Shown piece by piece: positions 13,170 to 62,600 of a DNA stretch of 64,000 nt. The notes below the pieces were generated by a model. It saw only the letters and a list, made by a program, of their open reading frames with translations. It was not told where the DNA came from and made no database searches. The position numbers were made by a program, and so were the translations under genes. This stretch comes from Neophaeotheca triangularis (taxonomy: Eukaryota), in NCBI GenBank assembly GCA_054600435.1, contig BAAIJX010000054.1, forward strand, positions 1 through 64,000, written 5' to 3'. Within the stretch, counting starts at the first letter, position 1; every line of letters starts with the position of its first letter.

Positions 13170-13197
13170 TGAGCCGCAAAGCGGCTCGATTCAATCT
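13170..13197. repeat. Left (5') asymmetric terminal inverted repeat with internal hairpin
   Basis: TGAGCCGCAAAGCGGCTCGATTCAATCT matches the reverse complement of 23468-23497 except for a 2-nt indel. It contains GAGCCGC-AAA-GCGGCTC and is preceded by TTTT. Confidence 0.88.
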
Positions 13198-13245
13198 CTA
13201 TGGGGTAAAACGTGCAGAGAAGCGGCATCGCTGATTGGCTGCTTT

Positions 13246-13279
13246 CGACGGTAACGGGCCGCAAGGCCCGTTACCGTCG
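13246..13279. other. Perfect 15-bp stem hairpin with GCAA loop
   Basis: CGACGGTAACGGGCC-GCAA-GGCCCGTTACCGTCG. Confidence 0.92.
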
Positions 13280-13401
13280 TGAGCAGGCAACTCAGCCGAG
13301 CCGCGACCGTCGTCCCTGCTTTGAACGCAACTCCGTCTTAGCGACCAGTAGACACCGTCTTGACCGTCTTGATGAGCATACAACTCTATCGCTTCGCTCA
13401 T

Positions 13402-13530
13402 GCGATACACCTCGCATCTCGACGCCGAATGAAAAACGAACCTACCTTCCCGGCGATACACCTCGCATCCCGACGCCGAATGAAAAATGAACCTACCTTC
13501 TAGACGCTACACCTCCCATCCCGACCCCGA
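13402..13530. repeat. 51-bp tandem repeat, about 2.5 copies
   Basis: GCGATACACCTCGCATC(T/C)CGACGCCGAATGAAAAA(C/T)GAACCTACCTTC starts at 13402 and 13453. A degenerate third copy starts at about 13504. Confidence 0.88.
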
Positions 13531-13603
13531 TAGCAGGAAGATGTACAGTACGCGTAAAACGTTAGGAAGGGGCATTTCTACACACTCCGTATCCCGATCA
13601 GTA

Positions 13604-13676
13604 ACTCCGTCTTGGTAAAAAACGACTCCGTCTTGGTAGAAAACGACTCCGTCTCGGTAGTAGATTCACTCCGTCT
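13604..13676 (+). repeat. ACTCCGTCT motif array (4 copies, 21-22-bp period), left subterminal
   Basis: Copies start at 13604, 13625, 13646 and 13668. Confidence 0.9.
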
Positions 13677-14358
13677 AGGCAAGATCTAATGTCAGTATTT
13701 ACAAGCCCATTACCATGAACATGAACTACCCGAAATGCTATGACTATTGGGATGAGGGGGATAACACTACGCCTAGAAGCAAACCTTATACCTCCTTGTA
13801 AAAGAAGAACACTATCGCCAGTTCGCATACTATGTTGCCGCAATGAGAACAGGAAGGTATACTGATAGCAATGTCACGCCTTCCGTCGAACATAAAGCAT
13901 TGTTCCTATACCCCACGAAATGCCCACCGTAGGTGCCGCCGGAGGTATAGGGGGGGGGGTCTAGGGGGGGGGGAGCATAGCTCCCCCCCCCTGGGATAAC
14001 TGCGAAGTAGTACTTCACACTGCGGAAACACCACACAGGAAACACCCCATCTAGTAACTCCGTCTTAGTAAGTAGAGATTCCGTCTCTACCGTTTGTAAG
14101 TATGTCTTGAGGTTGTTACCTACTCTGTTTTTCTACGGCGAAGGTAAGCCATGTCTTGGCTTTCATTCACGAGTAGCTAGAGGTGAATGGGTACCCGCAT
14201 GACAACACGGGCACCTTACAGTTTGCTAACACCTTCCACTTTTCCCTCATACCTTACAACCTTCTCCCCTTACACCTTCTAACCTTACACCTTCTAACCT
14301 TCTCTACTTTCAACCCTTCTACCGAACTGGTTGTTCACAACATCGTCAAACCGCCATT

Positions 14359-17300
14359 ATGGCGAATGCTTAGCAGCATGAAGACGGCGCGGTAACCTTT
14401 AAGTGCATGAGGTGTCACGTCCGGACTATTACTGGCTCCTTCCGTCCTCTTACTAGCAATACGCTCGAGAATTATTGTCACAATTGCCGTGGTCTACACA
14501 TGAACATGATCACCTAGAGACTTACCTACTACATGCCAAATGGTAGTGGGCCGATCTTTGATGCACCTACCAACATACCTCGGCCTCCATGGGCACAACA
14601 ATCGCTAGTTAGAGTGTCATTGTCTCAACCCGCACCTACGCCGTCAATAGCGCCTCACAGACCTAACACTGGATACGCTCCTAGACTGTATACCGATCCA
14701 AATGCTTTGGCATATGGGCCACCACGTCCTCTACAACCCCCTGTACAACCCCCTGTACAACCCCCTATACAACCTCAACAACATCCGACTCCTACCACCC
14801 TGTCTGCTCGCTGTATGAGATGCGGGCAGGACAAGCCAATCCTACACTTTGCGCCCCTTGCCGGACGTAAGAGGAAGTATGGTGCCCCTACCTACACGAA
14901 CAACTGTGCTAGCTATAGAGACTTTGTTGTCGACACTACTAACAACACTGTGCGAAAGAGAAGAGCAGATGAAATGAGTAGTGGTGCTGCATAACCTATG
15001 ACTTTAGCACTAGGCTTCCGTCTCGTAGCAATGCCGACATTCCCTACCGCCATGACCTCTTCTCAAGTTCAGTCACTCGCTCAACCCAACCGAGCTGTCA
15101 TCGGTCCGAGTTTGCAGGGATCGATGGCTCCCCTACAACCTTCTACCCATCCGCTCTACTACCCCGGCATAGAGGAGACCGAAGAGCAGCGGACAGGACG
15201 CCGCATGCTTTCAGCCTAAGGCCGTGAGGCTAGATATGAGGCACGGCAATCCGGATTACTAGCGTCTCGACCTTTACTACCTACTGCCTCCATGGGACCC
15301 CTAGCAGCACTAGGCTCACTACGACAGTGGTTCTATTGTACTCGATGTAGCGTCAACCGGCCCTACCTACTTTCGTAAGGACCTAACGGCAATGATGTGT
15401 GTATCTATTGCGTCTAAGGTGTTACTGGCGACAGCATGTAAGATGAGATCAAGTGGTGTCTCTATACTACTCATCCTACCGCTCGAATCCTTTTCTTTGA
15501 CAACGATGGTATTGAGCATGTAGAGGCCTACATCAGCTACCGGTTTACTCCACAACCTTAAACCCCTCAAGCTAACGAGTCGAGTTTTGGAGTTCCTCCC
15601 AATACGAGATCGTCCTAGACCCTTACGGGTACCCAGCCCCGTTCGTAGAGGAGGACCTAGAACCCTGGTGAGAGCGCTCGATAGCGCGAACGTCTGCTTA
15701 ATGAGACGGACCCTCCTCTTGCTTCTCAGCTAACCGTTGAGTCGTTGCAAGCAGCACCAGCTCTCTCCAATATAGACTTCGGCTTATTATAGAACTTCAA
15801 CCGCTTCTTGGATAAGGATGTGATGTAAGAGTGTCTACGTTGTCATGAGTCTTGGTTCAATATGGAACTAAGCAACAACATCTACGCGCGTTGCTACTAG
15901 AGAGATCACGGCTTACTTGCTAGACAACTATACCTCATGTCTTAGGGGAACAACATGATTCTAACCGGACCACATCCTGATCTTGAGCCTCTTAATGTCA
16001 TCGAGGAAATCTTAATAGCCAGAGTCCATGTCTCAATGGAGATTTATTAGGTGCGAGGCCAGCAATACCGTTATAAAGGACACGTCATCAACTTTCTCCG
16101 TGACACTACCCGGGTGTATCGTCGTCTGCCATTACTCCCTGCCAATGCCGACATTGTGTTGCTCCGTCCATCGACTAGACAGGACGCTGCAGTTGGACGC
16201 CAATTTACCAAGGAGTTCACAGTCCGTCGTCGTGTTATACGCATGTAGCTTGAATTTCTCCTTACCAATCACCCTGGCTACGCCGATATCAGTATTAATT
16301 ATGAGCGTCTCAGTCAGCTTCCAGACAATGCAGATGTTATGGACCAAATCGTCACTGATGAGTATAATCTTCCTGATGACGGCGTACGGCCACAAGGTAA
16401 TGGGCAGCCTACGGAGCAAGAGGATGCTGTCAAAGAAGAAGAGCATGAGGATACTAGCTTCGATGGCATCGCGGTTCCCAACCTACTAGACGACAACGTT
16501 ACTGTAGAAGACTTGCGTGATCGCCTCTAACAACTCAATCCGGTTAATCAATCGCAGACTCAACCTCTTGCACCTTCATACCCGCCAACCGAGAATGATA
16601 CGCCGCCGAACCCTAATCAGCCTGATGAGATTCCACATTTGACATGGCCGGAGCTCCAAGAAGTTCCTCTACAAGAGTGGGATCGCTCTCGACCTCTGTT
16701 GTGCTTAGCTTTTCCGTCACTCTTCCCGTATGGCGACGGTGATCATTCATAGCCACGCGAACGAAGCGTAACCTATGCTGCATACATCGACTATTTGATG
16801 AAGTACAAGGACGGCCGGTTTGCTCGCCATCCACGTTTTCGCTACGTTGTCTTCAACACCCTTATGAGATAGCAGACTCGAGGCAAATCGACATACTTCG
16901 TCAATCGCCGCGCCGAGGAAGGTGATCTTTCAATCGAGGACATCTAGGCTGCCTTATCAGCCGACGAGCGTGACTACAAAGCGTAGGCGTTATTGAACTC
17001 CATCATCTGGTTTAGTAGGAGCCTCCGAGGTACTCGCCCTTATTAGAATAGCCGTCATCTCCATCTAGAGGCCATGGTTAGAGCTCTCGGCAAGCCTGAT
17101 CTTTTTGTGACTTGTAGTGCCGTAGACCTACAGTGGGAGTCTCTTATGAAGCTTATGCCCCAGTATGAGCTTTATAAGACGCTACCCTCGGAGCAGCGCA
17201 TCAAGCTCGCTCGAGAGAACCTCTACCAGAACCCCCATATCGCTACAACTCACTTTAAGCGCCGATTCAAGGCATTGGTGAAGGACGTTCTTACCCTAAA

Positions 17301-20300
17301 GTTCAACGTCAAAGACTACTGGCTTCGGTACGAATGGTAAGGCTGGGGGAGTTCTCACGCTCACTTCTTCCTTTAGTGTCACGGCATGCCGACAGATCTC
17401 AACATGGAGATTCAACAACATCGCGAAGAGTTCGCAAAGCTCTAGGGTTTGCATGTCACAGCGCTCAACCCCGAGCCTGGTCGTGAAGTGCCTATAAGCA
17501 AGATTAGGGCAATTCACGCTAGATTAGAGCTTGAAAACCATCAAGCCAACCTTTCTAATATCATCAACTGTGTCCAACACCACATGTGTAGCAAGGAGTA
17601 TTGCCTCCGTCGCAAGAAGGATTCTAAGGGTGATCAGCTACTATATCGTTTCTACTTCCCCCGCGAAGTGCACATAGAGGCTAAAGTCTTACACGAGCAT
17701 AACAAGGCACATTGGTCGTTTATAGCTGCTTACAACGACCTGCAGCTCAACCACTATAATCGGTTGCTTTCTATAGCCTAGCGTGCCAATACCGACATCA
17801 CGCCGTGTACGACTACCGACGCTGTGCTCAACTACATCTCGAAATACTACAGCAAGGGCGAGAAGCAGACTGTACCATATGTCGACATTATGAAGCAGAT
17901 TCTACTAAAGGTATTAAGCGAGAAGCTAGTATTGTCTTTCATCGCCAAAGTCATGAACAAGCTTATTGGTGAGCAGGACTGGTCTGCCCAAGAGGTTATG
18001 CATCTACTCCTCAACCTGCCGTTACAAGAGAGCACTCGCACCGTCGTTACCCTCGATTGTCGTCCCCTTAATCAGCAGAACAGCGCCATCTACATTGAGG
18101 TGTATGAGGGTACGACGAAAAGAGGAGATAGCCCTTGGGACAAGTACATAAAACGGTCTGAGGAGAATGAAGACATCACGTTTTTTGTCTACCTTACCCA
18201 GTACAACCTCTAACGACGCGGAAGCCCTTCGGTCATTAGCAACCCGTTGAGTCATAGAATCATTAACTACTTTCCTCGATATCGAGTAGAGCTAGACCAT
18301 CCGGCATACCCTAACTTCTGTCGCATGAGGATCTTGCTCCACCACCGCTTTCGTGAAGTACCTCGTTATGATAAGGAGCATCCGTATCGGTTCCCTGTCG
18401 ACGATCCAGATGAAGACCATGAGGCTCTAGACTCATAGGAACCAGCCTTCACGAGCTAGATAGCTACGTACACATACTACTGATCGAATCATGCGTACTA
18501 TCAGCAAGAGATCACCGAAGACTACCTTACCGACCTACCTGAGCGCAACGAAGATGAATTTGAGGATCGCGAGCCGCTAGATGAAGGACAGGCAGCGCAC
18601 TTTCACGACCTAGCCCGTAAGATGCCAAACATCAATCGGGGTGTGCAGGATAATGATCCTAACAACCTTAGTGAACGAGAAATAGACAGAGCGGCTGACT
18701 GGAGCGATCGCATTGGGAAATATAAAGATCAATACCCCAAAGTCCATCAAGGGGTTAGTTAGTGGCAAGACATGAAGGCCGCGTAGCCTACTAATCTCGA
18801 CGTCGACATGTAGTCGACAAAGCAACATGATCTGTTGAATCGGTTCTAGCGCTAACTATTCGACAAAGTTACCGAGCATTATCAACAGATTCTCGATAGC
18901 TCCTCCCCCTAGCCTCTACTCATTAACGTCGATGGTCCGGCAGGCACTAGCAAGTCGTTCCTCATCAACATGCTGTCATCTGAACTGTAGAAGATAGGAC
19001 GTCAAGATCACGTAGAGTCCGGGGCTCCTGGTGAAGCACGTAGCCTAGTCATTAGGCTTGTACCTACTGGATCAGCGTCTTTCGCAATCTCTAGCCAGAC
19101 CCTACACTCTCTCTTTCTACTGCCTATCAACTAAGGCTTCAAACCGCTCGCAGCTGCACAAGTTCCTACTCTCAAGAACCAACTCATAGGTGTGTAATAC
19201 ATCATCATCGACGAGAAATCAATGATCAGCCTCAAGATACTCTACTAGCTTAGGTAACAGTTAAAGCAAGCGTTTCCTGCCAGTACGTTTCCTTTCGGTA
19301 GTATGAACATTATGCTGTTCGGTGACTTCTATCAGCTCACTCCAGTTAGAGGGCGTCCTCTATTCCAAAGTGGCGATCTCGGTTCGCCGGAGAACATCGC
19401 TGGCTAACAAGCATACCATTAATTCGACACTACTATTGTGCTTGAGACCATTATGAGACAGCAAGGCGATTCAGCAGATCAGCGAGCATTTAGGGATGCG
19501 TTAACTGCGCTCCGTAACGGTAAAGTAGAACGTGTGCATTGGCTTCTCCTCTATAGCCGTGTCAAGTCTATGATGCCGCTACCAGAGATTACACGATTTA
19601 ATAATGCTATTTATCTGTACTTTAACAACAGTACAGTACGTAGGTACAACCACGACAGGCTACGGGATGTGAATCGCGCCGTAATCAGGCTTTTCGCAAC
19701 CCATGATTATGAGCGGTCCAAAGATATAGAACCAAAAGAGGTTCATAACCTACAAGCCGTCCTTACGGTTTCGATTGGAGCTCGGGTTATGTTGCTTGAG
19801 AATCTATGGACTGCTCATGGACTAGTTAATGGTAGGCAGGGAATACTATACGACATCGTCTGGGCTTCGGATGTCACAGACCCCAAGACTTAACCGCCGC
19901 TCTTCCTATTAGTTGCATTTGAAGGTCTACAACTAGATGCGCCTACACTGTTTGAGTTCGAGGGCTGAAAGGTGCTTCCAATCTACTACAGCAAACGCTC
20001 CTTCTTACGTAACCAACGCGATGCCTTCCATGAGCAGTTCCCTCTTACGGTTTCTTATGCTTTGAGCATTCATAAAGCTCAGGGCATGACTCTCGATAAG
20101 GCTATATTAAACATTGTAGAGCGCGAGCATTCCGCTGGCTTGGTTTATGTTGCTGTCTCTCGGGTCAAAGAATTGAAGGGGTTGATGCTTGATGAGCCTA
20201 TCGACCTCGAACACCTACAGCATATTGGTCATAACAAAGTTGCTGAGATGCGGGACATGGATGCTATACGAAGGCAGACTTAAAGGCTGGCTCCGCCACC

Positions 20301-21036
20301 TAGTAGCCCCCCGACTCCTGGAATGCGGTCTCGTGCCACTCGAAATCTCCCGTCTAACGTCGATACAGGCTATCAATACTCCCAGCAGCCTATACTAACC
20401 TCTAACGTTATTGAAGTCACCAGCGACCTTCGGAATCTCATGAGCGATCAACTCTGTTCCGAAGGTCGACGCGAAATTCATGCTTTGAATAACATCCCTT
20501 GGGTAGAGCCAGGAATCTACCACTCGGATGGTTTCGACGTTAAAGGGTTGAATGCGGACGGTTTTGATGAGTAGGGCCGTAACGAGGATGAGCGTAGGCG
20601 ATATGGAAAGGACGTTGCGCAAGATCATACCTTAGTTCAGGCTTTAGTAGAGGGCATGGAGTTTGATGCAGCTTGTGTCTATGCCGTAAGGACTAACACT
20701 TGGGCTGGATAGGACTACGAGACAGATGAACGCGATGCCGCACGCCTTCGTAGAACACATCTCTTCTGTCCTCAGTAAGATAAGGGTAGGCAAGGCGAAG
20801 GTCAGGATACTCCGCGCGCATCAGTTTTGAACCGTGATCTAGGGGAGTTGCCAGGGTAGAACGAGCCAGAGCAACAAGGCATGCGTTCTCAGCAGTTTGA
20901 GGATGATGGTATCGGTGCTACTGATATGGAGGATGAAGATGAGAACGAGGAGGTATTGGGAGACTATATGATAGTAGGGGCCTTGCCTGACCCTACCCCT
21001 GACCTTGAAGACCATACCATGGAAGACATAGATTAG
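14359..21036 (+). pseudogene. Helitron Rep/helicase (N-terminal CxxC fingers, DUF6570-like region, HUH Rep, Pif1 helicase) broken by RIP stop codons
   Basis: ORF fragments at 14533, 14998, 16051, 16339, 17074, 17449, 17824, 18247, 19438, 19972 and 20323 are all in one frame. Motifs: GQQYRYKGHVINF, LGKPDLFVTCS, RYEW*GWGSSHAHFFL, YISKYYSKGE, GPAGTSKS, IIIDEKSMI, GDFYQL, MRQQG, QFPLTVSYALSIHKAQGMTL and YVAVSRV. The exact 3' stop is uncertain. Confidence 0.92.
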
Positions 21037-21078
21037 GACAAGTACGTAGGAATACAGGAGAGGTAGTAAGTGTAGTAG

Positions 21079-21140
21079 ACTTCGTCTTTACTCCGTCTTG
21101 GTACTATGGACTCTGTCTTAGGGTGCTATGGACTCCGTCT
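21079..21140 (+). repeat. ACTCCGTCT motif cluster between the two Helitron ORFs
   Basis: Perfect copies at 21090 and 21132. Single-mismatch copies at 21079 and 21110. Confidence 0.85.
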
Positions 21141-21407
21141 AAGGGTGCTTTTTTACTTTGTATTAAACCTTTTTGTCCTTTGTCAAATTTTGAGTTTAAT
21201 TTCAGGCACATGAATGAATATGTAAAATTTGCATTCCGTTTCTGGTGAATGTGAATGAGTGAATGCGAACAAAGGCAGACGTCACCGCCTGTTGATAAAA
21301 CTAGCCTTCCCTCCCCTTTGCACTTTACACCTTTTCATCTACCTCCTACAAGTTCAACAACTGCTACCTCACACGCATTACCTACTACCTAACACCCATT
21401 ACCTACC

Positions 21408-23273
21408 ATGGCCGACGACGATATCTATCGTGACCTAGACAGTAGCCCTAAGGAGCAATCTGAAGAGTAGACTGAAGAGAATACTGACAGCAACACCTAC
21501 ACTTCACCAACCCGTGAAGAGCGTGATAGGTCTATCGATCGTACAACCTGGCGTGAAATTCCTGAACACCACCGTCATGCTTATGGCGGCACTCCTTACT
21601 ACAAAGGAACCACTCCTTTAGTATAGCAGACTCCGAGACCCAAGAGAATCTATATGTCTGGTATTACTCCTTCTACTACCTCTACAGCAAGACGTCTAGA
21701 GCCTGGCCCTCGCTATGACCCGCAAGATCCATTCCGGTTCCCTACTCCGTCCCCGCCACCGCCAGGTACCGAAGGTAGGGGCAGGGGTAGGGGTAGGCCA
21801 AAGACCCGCGCCTCACTAAGTCGACGTCGTCTAAGTACACTAGCAAAACCAAGTCAAGCAAGGGGAACTCTCGGAGTAAGCACTAGTAGTGTTCGTCGCC
21901 CTACATTCCTATCTACGCTAGTAGGGGGCGAACGACGTCCTTCTAGAGCTCTAGATACGCTCATCTAGCGAAGGGAAGCTCGCCGTGTGTCAATAGCCCC
22001 GTCTACTAGTCGCATGTCCGATCTCACGTACACATTTAGGGGTGCTAGTCTTACTTCTCTAACTCCAGTATTCCATAGGGGCTCAGGTCTAGCTCCGATT
22101 GCTCCTCATGTGCTTCGTGACGGAACACCAACTCCTCTATTACGTCTACGAAGCCCTAATTGGGGTTCTACTCGTGGGTCTAACGCTACTGTTAGAGGCT
22201 CTCCCTTCTCACCGCCACCTGCTCCTTCCTTAGGAGGTGGTTCACCATTCTAGTCACGCGAACCTACGCCTTTCCGGTCGCGCGAACCTATGCCTACTTA
22301 CCTAAGTATCGAATCGACGGACATGGCAATGTAGGACGAGGCCTACTACCCAGCTTTAGAGTCTCAAACCGACGACGTTCGCTCACCCATTTACCGACCG
22401 TCCGCCTCTTACCGACCATCTGCCTCTTACCGCCCATCACCTACACCTTCTTACCAGTCTGTCGACCGATCTCGCTCTCTTTCCTACCACTATTCGCCTG
22501 CGCCGTCTACCCGCCAACCAACACCGATTGATGTACCTACTCGCTTGCCAGTACCGTCTAGGAGGACCTAACGTATACTGGAATCTGCGCCTATATCAAC
22601 GACGAAAAAGGATTCACCGAAGAAGGGCAAAACTCAGACAAGGACCGTCATCTAGAAGCCTATCAACTACTCTCAGTCTAAGTAGAACAGCCTTTCTCAC
22701 GACGTCAAATCGAAATTGTCCCATGTTGCGCATATCGAAGACACTAATGATGGTAGGAGGGCAAGCAAACCATGTAGTAACTATGAGAAGAAGGGCACAC
22801 CCTGTCTTATCTATACCGATGCTAGTATGGACAAATACTGTGTAAAGGGCAAGGGCTTTCGGTGTGCCTAATGCCGTCGCGACAATACAGCTGGGTGTTC
22901 AAGAGATACCCCTAAAGGCCGTGGGGGCATACCAGTACCAACTACGACACTAGTACCAGCACTAGCACCAGCAACCGCAATAGCACTAGCACTAGTACTA
23001 GCACCAGACTTACGTACACCTATAGAGCTATGGGCTGCTGCTAATCAAGACCGCGAGGCCGTAGAACGCACTGCAGAGGAGGCCGAGCACCGTGCACTTC
23101 GTCATGCTGTTGCTACGAATATGGAGCCAGGTTGGTTGACAGAGCAGATTAGGTACTATGCTAGACAGCTTCGAGTCGAGGAGGTGTTCCTACGGGAGCA
23201 ATTCGCTAACAACAACATCATGTTCAGGGACAACCGCACGAGGTGGATGGTTCGCTATGTTAGAGGTGGTTAA
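21408..23273 (+). pseudogene. Helitron second ORF (~620 aa): S/P/R-rich disordered region, Zn(II)2Cys6-like motif and helical C-terminus; RIP stops
   Basis: ACCATGG start at 21408, in frame with fragments 21654 and 21987. The frame continues to CSN(Y)EKKGTPC-x19-CA(*)CRRDNTAGC and closes at TAA 23271-23273, which could itself be a RIP stop. Confidence 0.7.
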
Positions 23274-23291
23274 ACAGCAAAGCAGCGTCGG

Positions 23292-23386
23292 AGACGGAGT
23301 CATAGACAGAGTGGAGATGGAGTGAGCAGACTGACAGACGGAGTGGGCAGACTGACAGACGGAGTGAGTAGACTAACAGACGGAGT
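23292..23386 (-). repeat. AGACGGAGT (reverse complement of ACTCCGTCT) array, right subterminal, 21-bp period
   Basis: Perfect copies at 23292, 23336, 23357 and 23378. Variants at 23304 and 23315. Confidence 0.9.
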
Positions 23387-23467
23387 TCGACGTAGTAGTA
23401 AATACCTCGCGTATTTTTGCCTTAAGCAATTTCACAATCAACTCGGGATATCACACTGTGCTTACTA

Positions 23468-23526
23468 AGATTGAATCGAGCGACGCTTTGCGGCTCACCT
23501 ACCAATAAGCACGGCGGGATTGGCAG
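23468..23526. repeat. Right (3') asymmetric inverted repeat plus terminal hairpin
   Basis: AGATTGAATCGAGCGACGCTTTGCGGCTCA at 23468-23497. Then CTACCAAT-N12-ATTGGCAG, a perfect 8-bp stem if one TG>TA change is reverted, followed by CACA-TTTT. Confidence 0.82.
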
Positions 23527-23620
23527 CACATTTTATTATATCTGATCATTCGCACTGCCTTTTGCACCCTTTGTTTCACCTCGACTAACACTATCTGAGC
23601 GGCATTGAAAATCCGGGAAG

Positions 23621-59695: not shown

Positions 59696-62600
59696 TGTTG
59701 CTGTCGTTTGGGACGACGACGACGACGGCGACTACTGATGAGCTGCAGCAGTGTGCGTGGTGTGTTTCGGTCGGCGGAGACGGTAGTGTGTAGGAAGTAG
59801 CAGTAGTCGGGTATAGGTACAGTAGCAAAAAGTGTGTTCTGTCGGCAGACGTGGACTTGTTCGCGCCGCAACGGTTCAACGAGGTGTAGGCTACTGCACA
59901 GCCAGTACAAGGCGCAGGAATAGCGTATGTCGGTGTTAGTCTTGTTATTCGTCGACGAGCCGCCTGCGGTCCAAGTTTCTCACTACTCGTGGGCCGTGGC
60001 GGGCGAGAGACGGAGAGAGTAATGGGTCGACGACGACGGATAGTGGAGGCGGCGGCGGTGGTGTTGGTGGTGATGGTCGGGTTGACGTCTAGTCGTAGTA
60101 GTTGGGAGGGGGGGTGGTCCACGACGAATAAGAGGAGAGGATAGGGCAAAGAGGTGCTTCTATTCTCACACTACTCTCACACTCTCATCAGGCTTTCCAA
60201 AGGGTAAAAGTAAGTTGGCTTCAGACTCGCGTAGTGTCGAGTGTATCGTCGTCGGCGGGTCCGAGCAGGCAGGTAGAACGGGTAGGTGGTGAATAGTGGA
60301 GTAGAAGGAGAGGAGAGGAGACTGAGGCGGACAAGGTAGGTAAGCTCGTAAGGTAGGTACCTTAGGTGGTGGTAGTGGAGGTGGTGCGGCTGCGTGCGCC
60401 CGCTGTCGTCACACCAGGCAGCGATGAGTGAATTCCAATCAAATGCAATCGCTAAAGTCCAACGCGCTTGCCTTGTCCCTGGCTTATGTCCACTGTTCAG
60501 GAGTCCAGGAGAGGACTACTAGGTGGTACTACTGCTACTACTACTACTACCACCACCCTCACCACTCACAACAGTAGGTAAGGTCGTAGTAGTAAGTAGT
60601 AAGTAACACTCGCGCGGGGGGGGGGGGGGGGGTCAATAAGGTTATTGTTGTTATTATTCGCGCAAAGGCTGGCGAATCCGCGAGCGTGGTAAGTTTTCGG
60701 ACTTCTGTCAGAGGGCAAGGAATCGAGACGGGCAAACGTTTGTATTGCTTTGGCGACGATAGCTCACTACTGGCTCCCACTCGACCCGACTGACGCGCTG
60801 GTGCCAAAGTCAAATCCCATCAAACATTCGGTATCTGACGGGAAGTCGTGATGAAGGCGTGAGAGTTGAGATGCTGCCACGAGTGTGGAAACCAATAGGA
60901 AAATGTTTGTTGGGATCCTTTGAACAATGAGCGCAAGAGGCACAGAAGTAATAGTAATAGTAGTAGTAGTAGTATTCAGTAGTATTCATGGTCCCCTTCC
61001 CCATCAATTTCGACGACCTCATACGCGAGCCAACAAGGCGTGAGGGCTGAATTGACAAACACCGGACCCGCCTGGTCAAGTACCCCCCTGGTCAAGTACC
61101 CCCCTAAACATCCCCCCCATGCGGCGATCAGTTCGTTGCGTTTGCGCCTCGAGGAAACGCTGGTGTGAATGGGAGAGACGAACGAGGGTCCGTCGACAGA
61201 TTAATCACATTAAGCGAGGTAACTTAATAGATTCGATGTCGGAGACATGTTCGTTCACCTACCTGCACCAGCTGGCATCGTCGACCTTCAACTGGATTAG
61301 TTTGTAGTGCCCGATTACATTAACTCATTAACCTTTGAAATTGAATTTCGACAATCTCACAACCTAATCCCATGACAACAAACACGCCGAGTCTGACCCA
61401 TCGAGCTCGCTTCTTCCTACTCGAAAACAAACCCTCTTTCCTTTTACCTTTTCACTTTCTGCCCCCAGATGACAAAACAAGTCCTAAACCCTAGCGTGAG
61501 GGAGTGGTGCGACAAGCAAAGTGATCCCTGTCCATCCAATCAAAACCAGACATGGCCTCGCTCGACAAGTCACAAGAGCCTGCTGCTGAAACAATATTGA
61601 GACGCCGATCCGGATCTGCTGCAAGTCAGCCCTTTCTTTTCCTACTTATTATTACTACCTAGGTAGGAGGTACTGTTGTCTCGCTCTCGGTATCCCCGTA
61701 CTCTTCTATCCCATAATAAACAGTCGCGGTTAAGTACCTACTTAGTGCTGGTCTACTACCACATGCGGCATGATGCGGGTGATGACAACCATATCATTAT
61801 TGCCTTCTTCACGCAAAACAATGTGTATAGACCAACCTTGGAAGTCTACTACTATCCGTGGTATCAGACGACAGTCAGAGACGAATCCATCTAGTAGTCT
61901 CACCGCTATACAGCCCAACCTTGCCTCAGTACCTACAGTACTTCCCGTAACACAGCATGTTTTGCAATAGATATTGAACCCGCCGCACTCATACATGTAC
62001 ATGTATATGTACCTACTGTAGCCTTTTCGTTCTTGTTATTACAAGTGGAGCATGCCCAATCCCATTATCTCGTCGCGACAAACTTCATTAAGCCCCGCCT
62101 CGCTACCAGACTTCCAATTGTTGCACTTCTTCACGATGGAAAAGGCAGGCTTGCACGCGACTCCACCATCTTCTACACAAAACGCTAGACTAATCATCAC
62201 CTCACCTCACCTCACCTCACGCGACAAGACTCTGAGATGAAAAGGCTCGTGCCCATTGCCGTTGGTGGTCATTCCATCTTGCCGAATGCCGGAGTCCATC
62301 TCGTCGAGCTGTATGTGTCTAGTGACTGGTGTTCTGGCCATGAGAAAGAATCCTCCGTGATACACTTGTTCTTCTTCCCCGTCTTCGGTCGGCTGCTACC
62401 TTACCCTTTAACAACACCTCGTCGAACCATGGCCTTGGAAAGAAATCACCCACAAGTACTAGGCACTCAATAACAACAAAGAACCCCCTCCATCCCATGT
62501 ACGCATCGACGCAACAACAACCTGGAATCCTTACACTCAGACTCAGTTACCGTTTCTAAAAGTAGCCTACACCACTCTCCAAGCAAAACCCACCCGACTG

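Follow-up and report, generated by a model that had tools for sequence, protein, structure and literature searches.

A RIP-inactivated Helitron2 element of Neophaeotheca triangularis with an accessory six-cysteine gene for a putative binder of the element's own motif arrays

Transposition of Helitrons is thought to need Rep/Hel (replication initiator and helicase in one protein) only. One extra conserved gene beside Rep/Hel is found in some of them, e.g., an RPA-like gene in plants or a TET/JBP gene in fungi. The TET/JBP genes carried by fungal Helitrons are shared among Helitron, IS3EU and other superfamilies (PMC12730594). Here we describe a further gene in such a position, which belongs to a different protein family and has a different presumed role. 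It is located in a 64,000-nt stretch of Neophaeotheca triangularis DNA (contig BAAIJX010000054.1 of assembly GCA_054600435.1, positions 1 to 64,000 of the forward strand; referred to below as the window), in a Helitron2-type element of 10.4 kb (13170-23534). The gene, ORF2 (ORF, open reading frame), lies downstream of the Rep/Hel gene (ORF1) in the same orientation. ORF2 is a separate, genuine gene within the ends of the element, and it has undergone repeat-induced point mutation (RIP) together with the element. Our preferred reading, which is tentative and falls somewhat short of being probable, is that ORF2 is a RIP-inactivated accessory gene of a FoHeli1/2-like Helitron2, whose product would bind, through an AlcR-like zinc-cluster module, the AGACGGAGT sites of the same element.

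The Helitrons to be compared are FoHeli1 and FoHeli2 of Fusarium oxysporum. These Helitron2 elements are described as having a 5' hairpin, an asymmetric terminal inverted repeat and, 38-51 bp before the ATTTT end, its 3' repeat (PMC5148889). Like them, the N. triangularis element has a Rep/Hel gene without endonuclease, a 5' hairpin starting with T(C/G)AGCC and an inset 3' repeat. However, FoHeli1 and FoHeli2 have only ~5-6 kb, whereas the element studied here has in addition the downstream ORF2 and arrays of a 9-nt motif. Among the FoHeli elements of that paper, FoHeli3 is the only one with an extra ORF, which is located upstream in the opposite orientation and has no known domains (PMC5148889); a search of the paper for the term 'subterminal' gave no occurrence.

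For the protein, the closest counterpart is AlcR of Aspergillus nidulans (PDB 1f4s/2alc), a host pathway regulator, whereas ORF2 is a transposon gene. The six Cys of AlcR (C1 to C6 below) and the Gly-aromatic pair before C4 align with the profile of the family formed by ORF2 and its database relatives, and its C3-C4 loop has 16 residues, compared with 15-20 in this family. Extra helices between and after the zinc-binding helices are described for AlcR (PMC6265462); they appear to have a counterpart in AlphaFold2 models of ORF2 relatives. The ORF2 family differs in adding an N-terminal SH(I/V)GRIEET helix and in lacking the basic first triad of AlcR.

Six-Cys proteins are encoded by another fungal transposon as well. 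REP9 of Zymoseptoria tritici, an active 7.9-kb IS3EU-like DNA transposon subject to RIP in sister species, has four genes, two of which, REP9-1 (193 aa, six Cys) and REP9-2, encode DUF3716 proteins (PMC8232023). Like ORF2, these are six-Cys accessory ORFs on a RIP-exposed fungal DNA transposon; the REP9 proteins are small and lack a signal peptide. REP9 is a DDE element, whereas ORF2 is carried by a rolling-circle Helitron, and the REP9 proteins were compared by their description and by the PF12511 (DUF3716) profile. Styx, an element of the same genus with 7927 bp and four ORFs, has two genes called 'putative DNA binding' in its description (PMC10853768). Judging by size, genus and gene number, Styx appears to be REP9. 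Furthermore, a Fusarium DUF3716 protein was reported to be the orthologue of Neurospora NCU05718 (PMC10776026), and recombinant NCU05718 was found to bind double-stranded TTAGGG repeats directly, although no DNA-binding domain is annotated in it (PMC4650311). Six-Cys modules that are carried along by transposons or that bind short DNA repeats therefore have a precedent in the REP9 DUF3716 proteins and NCU05718.

A second element-encoded protein beside the transposase is also present in the En/Spm (CACTA) transposon: TNPA binds short direct and inverted repeats in both subtermini and in the promoter. The comparison with ORF2 is by analogy: En/Spm is a DDE cut-and-paste element rather than an HUH rolling-circle one, no sequence relationship exists, and the binding by ORF2 is putative.

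The initial annotation of the locus, made from the letters alone, had recognized a Helitron with a Rep/Hel gene. Indeed, the translation of ORF1, which is interrupted by at least 51 in-frame stops (30 TAG, 19 TAA, 2 TGA), matches the Pfam families Helitron_like_N (E-value 1.6e-35), DUF6570 (1.9e-24) and PIF1 (1.4e-15), and no endonuclease family is among the 10 Pfam families listed for it at E ≤1. The two arms of the terminal inverted repeat (13170-13197 and 23468-23497) are 93% complementary (28/30 nt), and the 5' hairpin has a folding energy of -8.7 kcal/mol (z -3.55). Thus, the element combines the features that define Helitron2: Rep (HUH) and a Pif1-type helicase in one ORF without endonuclease, and an asymmetric terminal inverted repeat with an inset 3' arm and a 5' hairpin. 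The limits of the element were placed according to this FoHeli1/2-type architecture and are putative.

The signature of RIP is present in the element but not in its flanks. The ratio TpA/ApT reaches 1.70 in ORF2 and has a value of 1.21 over the whole element, compared with 0.72-0.74 in the flanks, and the corresponding values of (CpA+TpG)/(ApC+GpT) are 0.76, 0.92 and 1.17-1.25. Counted together, ORF1 and ORF2 have 60 in-frame stops, only two of which are TGA; this near-absence fits RIP. The dinucleotide skew and the lack of TGA in ORF2 agree with the RIP-type changes that had been proposed for the locus. Within the element, ORF2 has the strongest signature; as it also lies inside the inverted-repeat ends, it must have belonged to the unit that was repeated. 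We considered and rejected the possibility that TAG stops are restored by A-to-I editing (PMC10776026), since so many of the ORF1 stops are TAA and the dinucleotide skew extends over the whole element.

In a source-like sequencing run (X1), this copy is the only one of ORF1/ORF2 at ≥80% identity; two other runs, X2 and X3, have no coverage of the element or of its flanks. The 3' repeat region (23448-23501) is present in at least three contigs of X1 with differing flanks, and the depth of its 34-mer 23453-23486 is 317 vs ~130; therefore, other elements or solo ends share this terminus. The 5' part of the element contains further repeats. A near-perfect palindrome (13235-13290; 26-nt arms, 4-nt loop) lies 65 nt inside the 5' end and, as single-stranded DNA, folds far more strongly than the terminal hairpin (-35.6 kcal/mol, z -9.9; none of 200 shuffles equal). 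Between this palindrome and the motif array there are three tandem 51-nt units (13402-13554; 100%, 92% and 61% identity), and upstream of ORF1 there is a GC palindrome (13941-13990) made up of the runs G10, G10 and C9. Ahead of DUF6570 and Rep, the N-terminus of ORF1 (14383-15900) contains four CxxC-x16-27-CxxC-like motifs, one of them with Tyr at an expected Cys and one interrupted by a stop.

ORF2 has its own ATG, differs in frame from ORF1 and is preceded by a CT-rich tract and a motif array. A hidden single-frame ORF of ~620 aa had been postulated here, and we find 621 codons with nine internal stops (seven TAG, two TAA, no TGA). The other five frames of 21408-23273 contain 26, 42, 37, 35 and 50 stops, and first-order Markov simulations, 2000 in number, never gave a forward frame with ≤9 stops (simulated minimum 11). 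The long N-terminal part of the protein is Ser/Pro/Arg-rich and probably disordered; its first 400 residues had no relatives in the database searches. The peptide PRYDxxxP[YF]RFP is encoded in frame both in this part (21708-21743) and in ORF1 between Rep and Hel (18361-18396), with 72% identity of the DNA over 36 nt and a BLASTP E-value of 0.008 in a single comparison. On the 3' side of the Cys module, tandem repeats of 12/18 nt (22948-23007) encode an Ala/Leu/Pro/Thr-rich stretch.

An exhaustive phmmer search of 1.84 billion representative proteins revealed 12 fungal relatives of ORF2 (E-values 1.8e-8 to 3.6e-4). The matches are confined to ORF2 residues 314-512 and, in 11 of the 12 cases, to 361-512. 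Those with a name are annotated as hypothetical proteins in Phyllosticta species and in Elasticomyces elasticus, whereas the others are ENA/Logan/JGI predictions without a name. The relatives have lengths of 150-513 aa, compared with 621 aa in ORF2. The shared core of ~90 residues consists of a basic K-K-G-K-like patch, (R/K)P...S..W and SH(I/V)GRIEET..G, followed by the Cys module with the consensus C-x2-C-x6-8-C-x-VYT, a C3-C4 stretch of 15-20 residues (in which x-VYT is included as the beginning) and C-x2-CR-x6-9-CS. In ORF2 itself, the module reads C-SN-Y-EKKGTP-C-x19-C-A-stop-C-RRDNTAG-C. These letters had been correctly given, except that the x19 linker (LIYTDASMDKY-C-VKGKGFR) holds an additional, seventh Cys, whose column is not conserved in the relatives. 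The proposed reversion of TAT to a Cys codon is supported as well: in a 19-row alignment, the column of the window's Tyr459 is Cys in all 18 relatives, and for this reason we regard the six-Cys motif as real and conserved. Altogether, the six columns contain Cys in 104 of 108 cells of the 18 relatives. Columns of in-frame stops could be read in the same way. At the TAG of residue 426, 11 of the 18 relatives have Trp and 6 have Phe; at the TAG of residue 416, 15 have Arg, one has Gln and one Glu. The column of the TAA between C4 and C5 is variable, with Arg in 9, Glu in 6 and Ala in 3 relatives. The position of the module near the C-terminus, initially regarded as unusual, deserves little weight: in the relatives, the module is preceded by a disordered N-terminus and is usually followed by a coiled coil.

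Three of the four non-Cys cells in the Cys columns of the relatives are Tyr, corresponding to a RIP-type G-to-A change (C1 in P0002 and P0019, C5 in P0007). In addition, a flankless metagenome contig of 1343 bp (L001) encodes at 1-790 two tandem copies of SH(I/V)GRIEET plus the six-Cys module, the first with Arg for the sixth Cys and the second split by a frameshift. The Tyr residues and the broken tandem copies hint that the relatives are often repeated, RIP-exposed DNA. The other searches added little. A word-indexed protein search with the whole ORF2 gave no match at E ≤0.01, probably being swamped by low-complexity words; the 10 proteins returned by a profile search near the query length were all close relatives of the input rows; when the profile was used to look for fusions or longer forms (1088-3105 aa), none was found, which is weak evidence; and no confirmed relative was found in viral and genome contig collections.

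The initial annotation had interpreted the module as Zn(II)2Cys6-like and compared it with Gal4-type clusters, noting the longer linker. Both Cys triads fit the pattern of Zn(II)2Cys6 proteins (C-x2-C-x6-C and C-x2-C-x6-8-C) in the family, with Tyr at C2 in the window, but the C3-C4 linker (19 residues in the window, 15-20 in the relatives) is outside the range of 5-12, to which AlcR with its 16 residues is a known exception. The profile of the family had 17 matches among PDB sequences at E ≤10; 16 of them were coiled coils, and the sole zinc-finger match was AlcR, which was not significant (E 0.89, 12.5 bits) and in which all six Cys aligned across the 16-residue loop. AlphaFold2 models of two intact relatives have a core pLDDT (predicted local distance difference test) of 84-95 and show short helices at the two triads, with a single helix in between and another one behind. 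In these models, the SH(I/V)GRIEET helix is predicted to pack against two C-x2-C-x6-C triads joined by the 15-20-residue loop. When the models were compared with PDB by Foldseek, Zn2Cys6 domains made up 8 of the 31 listed rows for the first model (AlcR at rank 2) and 12 of the 35 for the second, with Pho7 twice, Ppr1 and Gal4 at ranks 1-4 and probabilities up to 0.57; one of these twelve rows is 1cld, which we take to be the zinc cluster of LAC9. As a lead only, the top cluster of a language-model Atlas for two family members (scores 0.82 and 0.86) contains DUF3716 in 28% of its members.

A number of results weigh against this assignment. No Pfam family was found for the window's ORF2 at E ≤1. 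In none of the 12 relatives does PF00172 reach its cut-off of 21 bits, the highest score being 18.8 bits; it is listed for 9 of the 12 at E ≤5, and most of these matches cover half the domain (profile positions 15-38). PF12511 likewise remains below its cut-off of 22 bits in every relative (best 16.2 bits), being listed for 6 of the 12 with E-values of 0.01-0.72 and at profile positions 6-58 of 59. Every Foldseek E-value is ≥1.5, and VIA-align gave no Zn2Cys6 match at Z ≥2, either in a wide search or among Foldseek's 41 candidates. In the wide search, the results of the full model were filled by single-helix coiled-coil matches and those of the short model consisted of two unrelated rows (Z 2.1-2.2). 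Note that VIA-align neither supports nor excludes the fold of a metal-held domain of 40 residues. Furthermore, the first triad does not consistently carry the basic residues through which Gal4-type proteins contact CGG; a conserved Arg follows C5 instead. The profile (hidden Markov model) and structure searches that had been suggested for ORF2 thus placed Zn2Cys6 domains at the top of the Foldseek ranking, but with Pfam scores below the cut-offs, without a significant E-value and without a VIA-align match. Membership in the Gal4 type is not established, as the linker is too long and the PF00172 score too low for it. On balance, we lean slightly towards regarding the module as related to the Zn2Cys6/DUF3716 type, with a long loop.

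The second part of our reading concerns the motif arrays. When both strands are counted, 12 exact copies of AGACGGAGT are present in the window (0.49 expected), all of them within the element (13330-23386). With up to one mismatch there are 29 matches, compared with 14.7 ± 3.6 expected (none of 100 shuffles reaches 29); 21 of these 29 are inside the element, and 19 of the 21 belong to four arrays, where the spacing is mostly 21-22 nt (Table 1). A repeated CGG-containing motif upstream of both ORFs had been noted before, and copies of AGACGGAGT are indeed present ~300 nt upstream of each. Beyond that, we found it in a 5' subterminal array and in an inverted 3' subterminal array. The sole similarity between the upstream regions of ORF1 and ORF2 is a 14-nt exact match to units of the 5' array. 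The four array regions share only units of 9-14 nt, and the surrounding sequences are dissimilar. As this motif is all that the arrays have in common, it points to a selected site rather than to a segmental duplication. We also considered that the inverted arrays on either side of ORF2 might be the terminal inverted repeats of a nested element, but no further similarity supports this. AGACGGAGT is absent from the metagenome contig L001.

How could ORF2 and the arrays be connected? We propose that the six Cys would bind zinc as an AlcR-like long-loop variant of Zn2Cys6, in a module that may be remotely related to DUF3716. This module could be a sequence-specific DNA binder, for which the AGACGGAGT sites of the element itself would be the likeliest targets. 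At the two promoter arrays, the ORF2 protein might regulate both ORF1 and ORF2; at the inverted subterminal arrays, it might mark or shape the ends for Rep/Hel. Such a role would be analogous to that of the second protein of En/Spm, and it is mainly the resemblance of the layout to two-protein transposons of this kind that leads us to connect the arrays with an element-encoded binder. Binding of the arrays by the ORF2 protein is pure inference, and the protein should be regarded as a putative binder.

The most serious alternative, which we nevertheless consider unlikely, is that ORF2 is captured or host-derived cargo, i.e., a fungal gene for a small six-Cys nuclear protein that this Helitron lineage acquired and that has no dedicated role in transposition, and that CGG in the motif is coincidental. 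The relatives in five Phyllosticta species look single-copy (once per species in ~90% clusters, one contig each), as would fit an ordinary host gene, and none of the relatives was fused to Rep/Hel or shown to adjoin it in the phmmer search, the long-form profile search or the one metagenome contig. The relatives are, moreover, shorter than ORF2, and its N-terminal part has no counterpart among them. On the other hand, ORF1 and ORF2 are preceded at equal distance by an array of the same motif; Tyr residues at Cys positions and broken tandem copies hint that the relatives are often repeated DNA themselves; and the putatively related DUF3716 domain is present on a transposon of another superfamily.

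The arrays could also be cis sites for Rep/Hel or for a host factor, with ORF2 doing something else, e.g., protein-protein adaptation, silencing escape or nuclear targeting. The four N-terminal CxxC...CxxC-like motifs of Rep/Hel could bind the arrays, a transposase is expected to act at inverted subterminal arrays, and the peptide PRYDxxxP[YF]RFP common to both proteins could be a docking motif. This explanation appears less probable still than captured cargo, given that arrays in the coding orientation also precede both ORFs at the distance of a promoter, as would suit a binder resembling a transcription factor, and that the best structural and sequence neighbours of the ORF2 module are DNA-binding zinc clusters. 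That ORF2 is no gene at all, its open frame and Cys pattern having arisen by chance in RIP-mutated spacer DNA, would agree with its nine stops and with the lack of an RNA run among the sequencing runs listed for the element, but this possibility is negligible, being effectively refuted by the stop simulations and by the 12 phmmer relatives with their conserved Cys, His, Ile, Tyr and Gly columns.

If ORF2-type proteins do bind the arrays, a fungal Helitron2 would represent a two-protein control system, open to simple in vitro tests, and a function would be found for the DUF3716-like six-Cys domain, which is poorly understood. Should ORF2 prove to be cargo only, the element is an ordinary RIPed Helitron with a passenger gene. 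In the literature searched (titles and abstracts), no Helitron-encoded zinc-cluster partner, DNA-binding cofactor or cognate subterminal array was found. A more far-reaching version of our reading, to which we give somewhat less credence even than to Rep/Hel or a host factor as the binder, is that of a Helitron2 lineage with its own zinc-cluster-type binder, a TNPA-like cofactor with 21-nt-phased sites at promoters and inverted subtermini, the DUF3716-like module being a DNA-binding cassette that would move between IS3EU-like REP9 and Helitron2.

Table 1. Features of the Helitron2 element and of ORF2 (window coordinates).
Feature	Position	Strand	Basis and remarks
5' terminal inverted repeat	13170-13197	+	Hairpin with 8-bp stem and AAA loop; resembles 5' ends of FoHeli1/2 as described in PMC5148889
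5' subterminal AGACGGAGT array	13330-13676	-	7 copies at ≤1 mismatch; four at 21-22 nt spacing (13604-13676)
AGACGGAGT pair before ORF1	14057-14086	-	Two copies ~275-300 nt upstream of ORF1 ATG
ORF1, RIP-degraded Helitron Rep/Hel	14359-21036	+	Pfam matches, translation
AGACGGAGT array before ORF2	21079-21140	-	Four copies ~270-330 nt upstream of ORF2 ATG
ORF2	21408-23273	+	621 codons and terminal TAA; 9 RIP-type in-frame stops
Conserved core of ORF2 (residues 408-498)	22629-22901	+	KP..S..W, SH(V)AHIED motif and six-Cys module; phmmer matches, alignments
Six-Cys stretch	22773-22898	+	C2 is Tyr (TAT 22782-22784); TAA 22869-22871 between C4 and C5
3' subterminal AGACGGAGT array	23292-23386	+	6 copies just after ORF2 stop; orientation opposite to the other three arrays; last four at 21 nt
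3' arm of asymmetric terminal inverted repeat	23468-23497	+	Complementarity to 5' arm
Putative 3' terminus ATTTT	23530-23534	+	37 nt beyond inverted repeat; matches description of FoHeli1/2 in PMC5148889

The neighbours of the element are ordinary fungal genes, encoding an oxidoreductase upstream and a transporter of the major facilitator superfamily downstream. A second RIP-like patch is present in the window at 60001-62000, with a TpA/ApT ratio of 1.24, a (CpA+TpG)/(ApC+GpT) ratio of 0.86 and strong swings of GC skew; it may be another degraded repeat.

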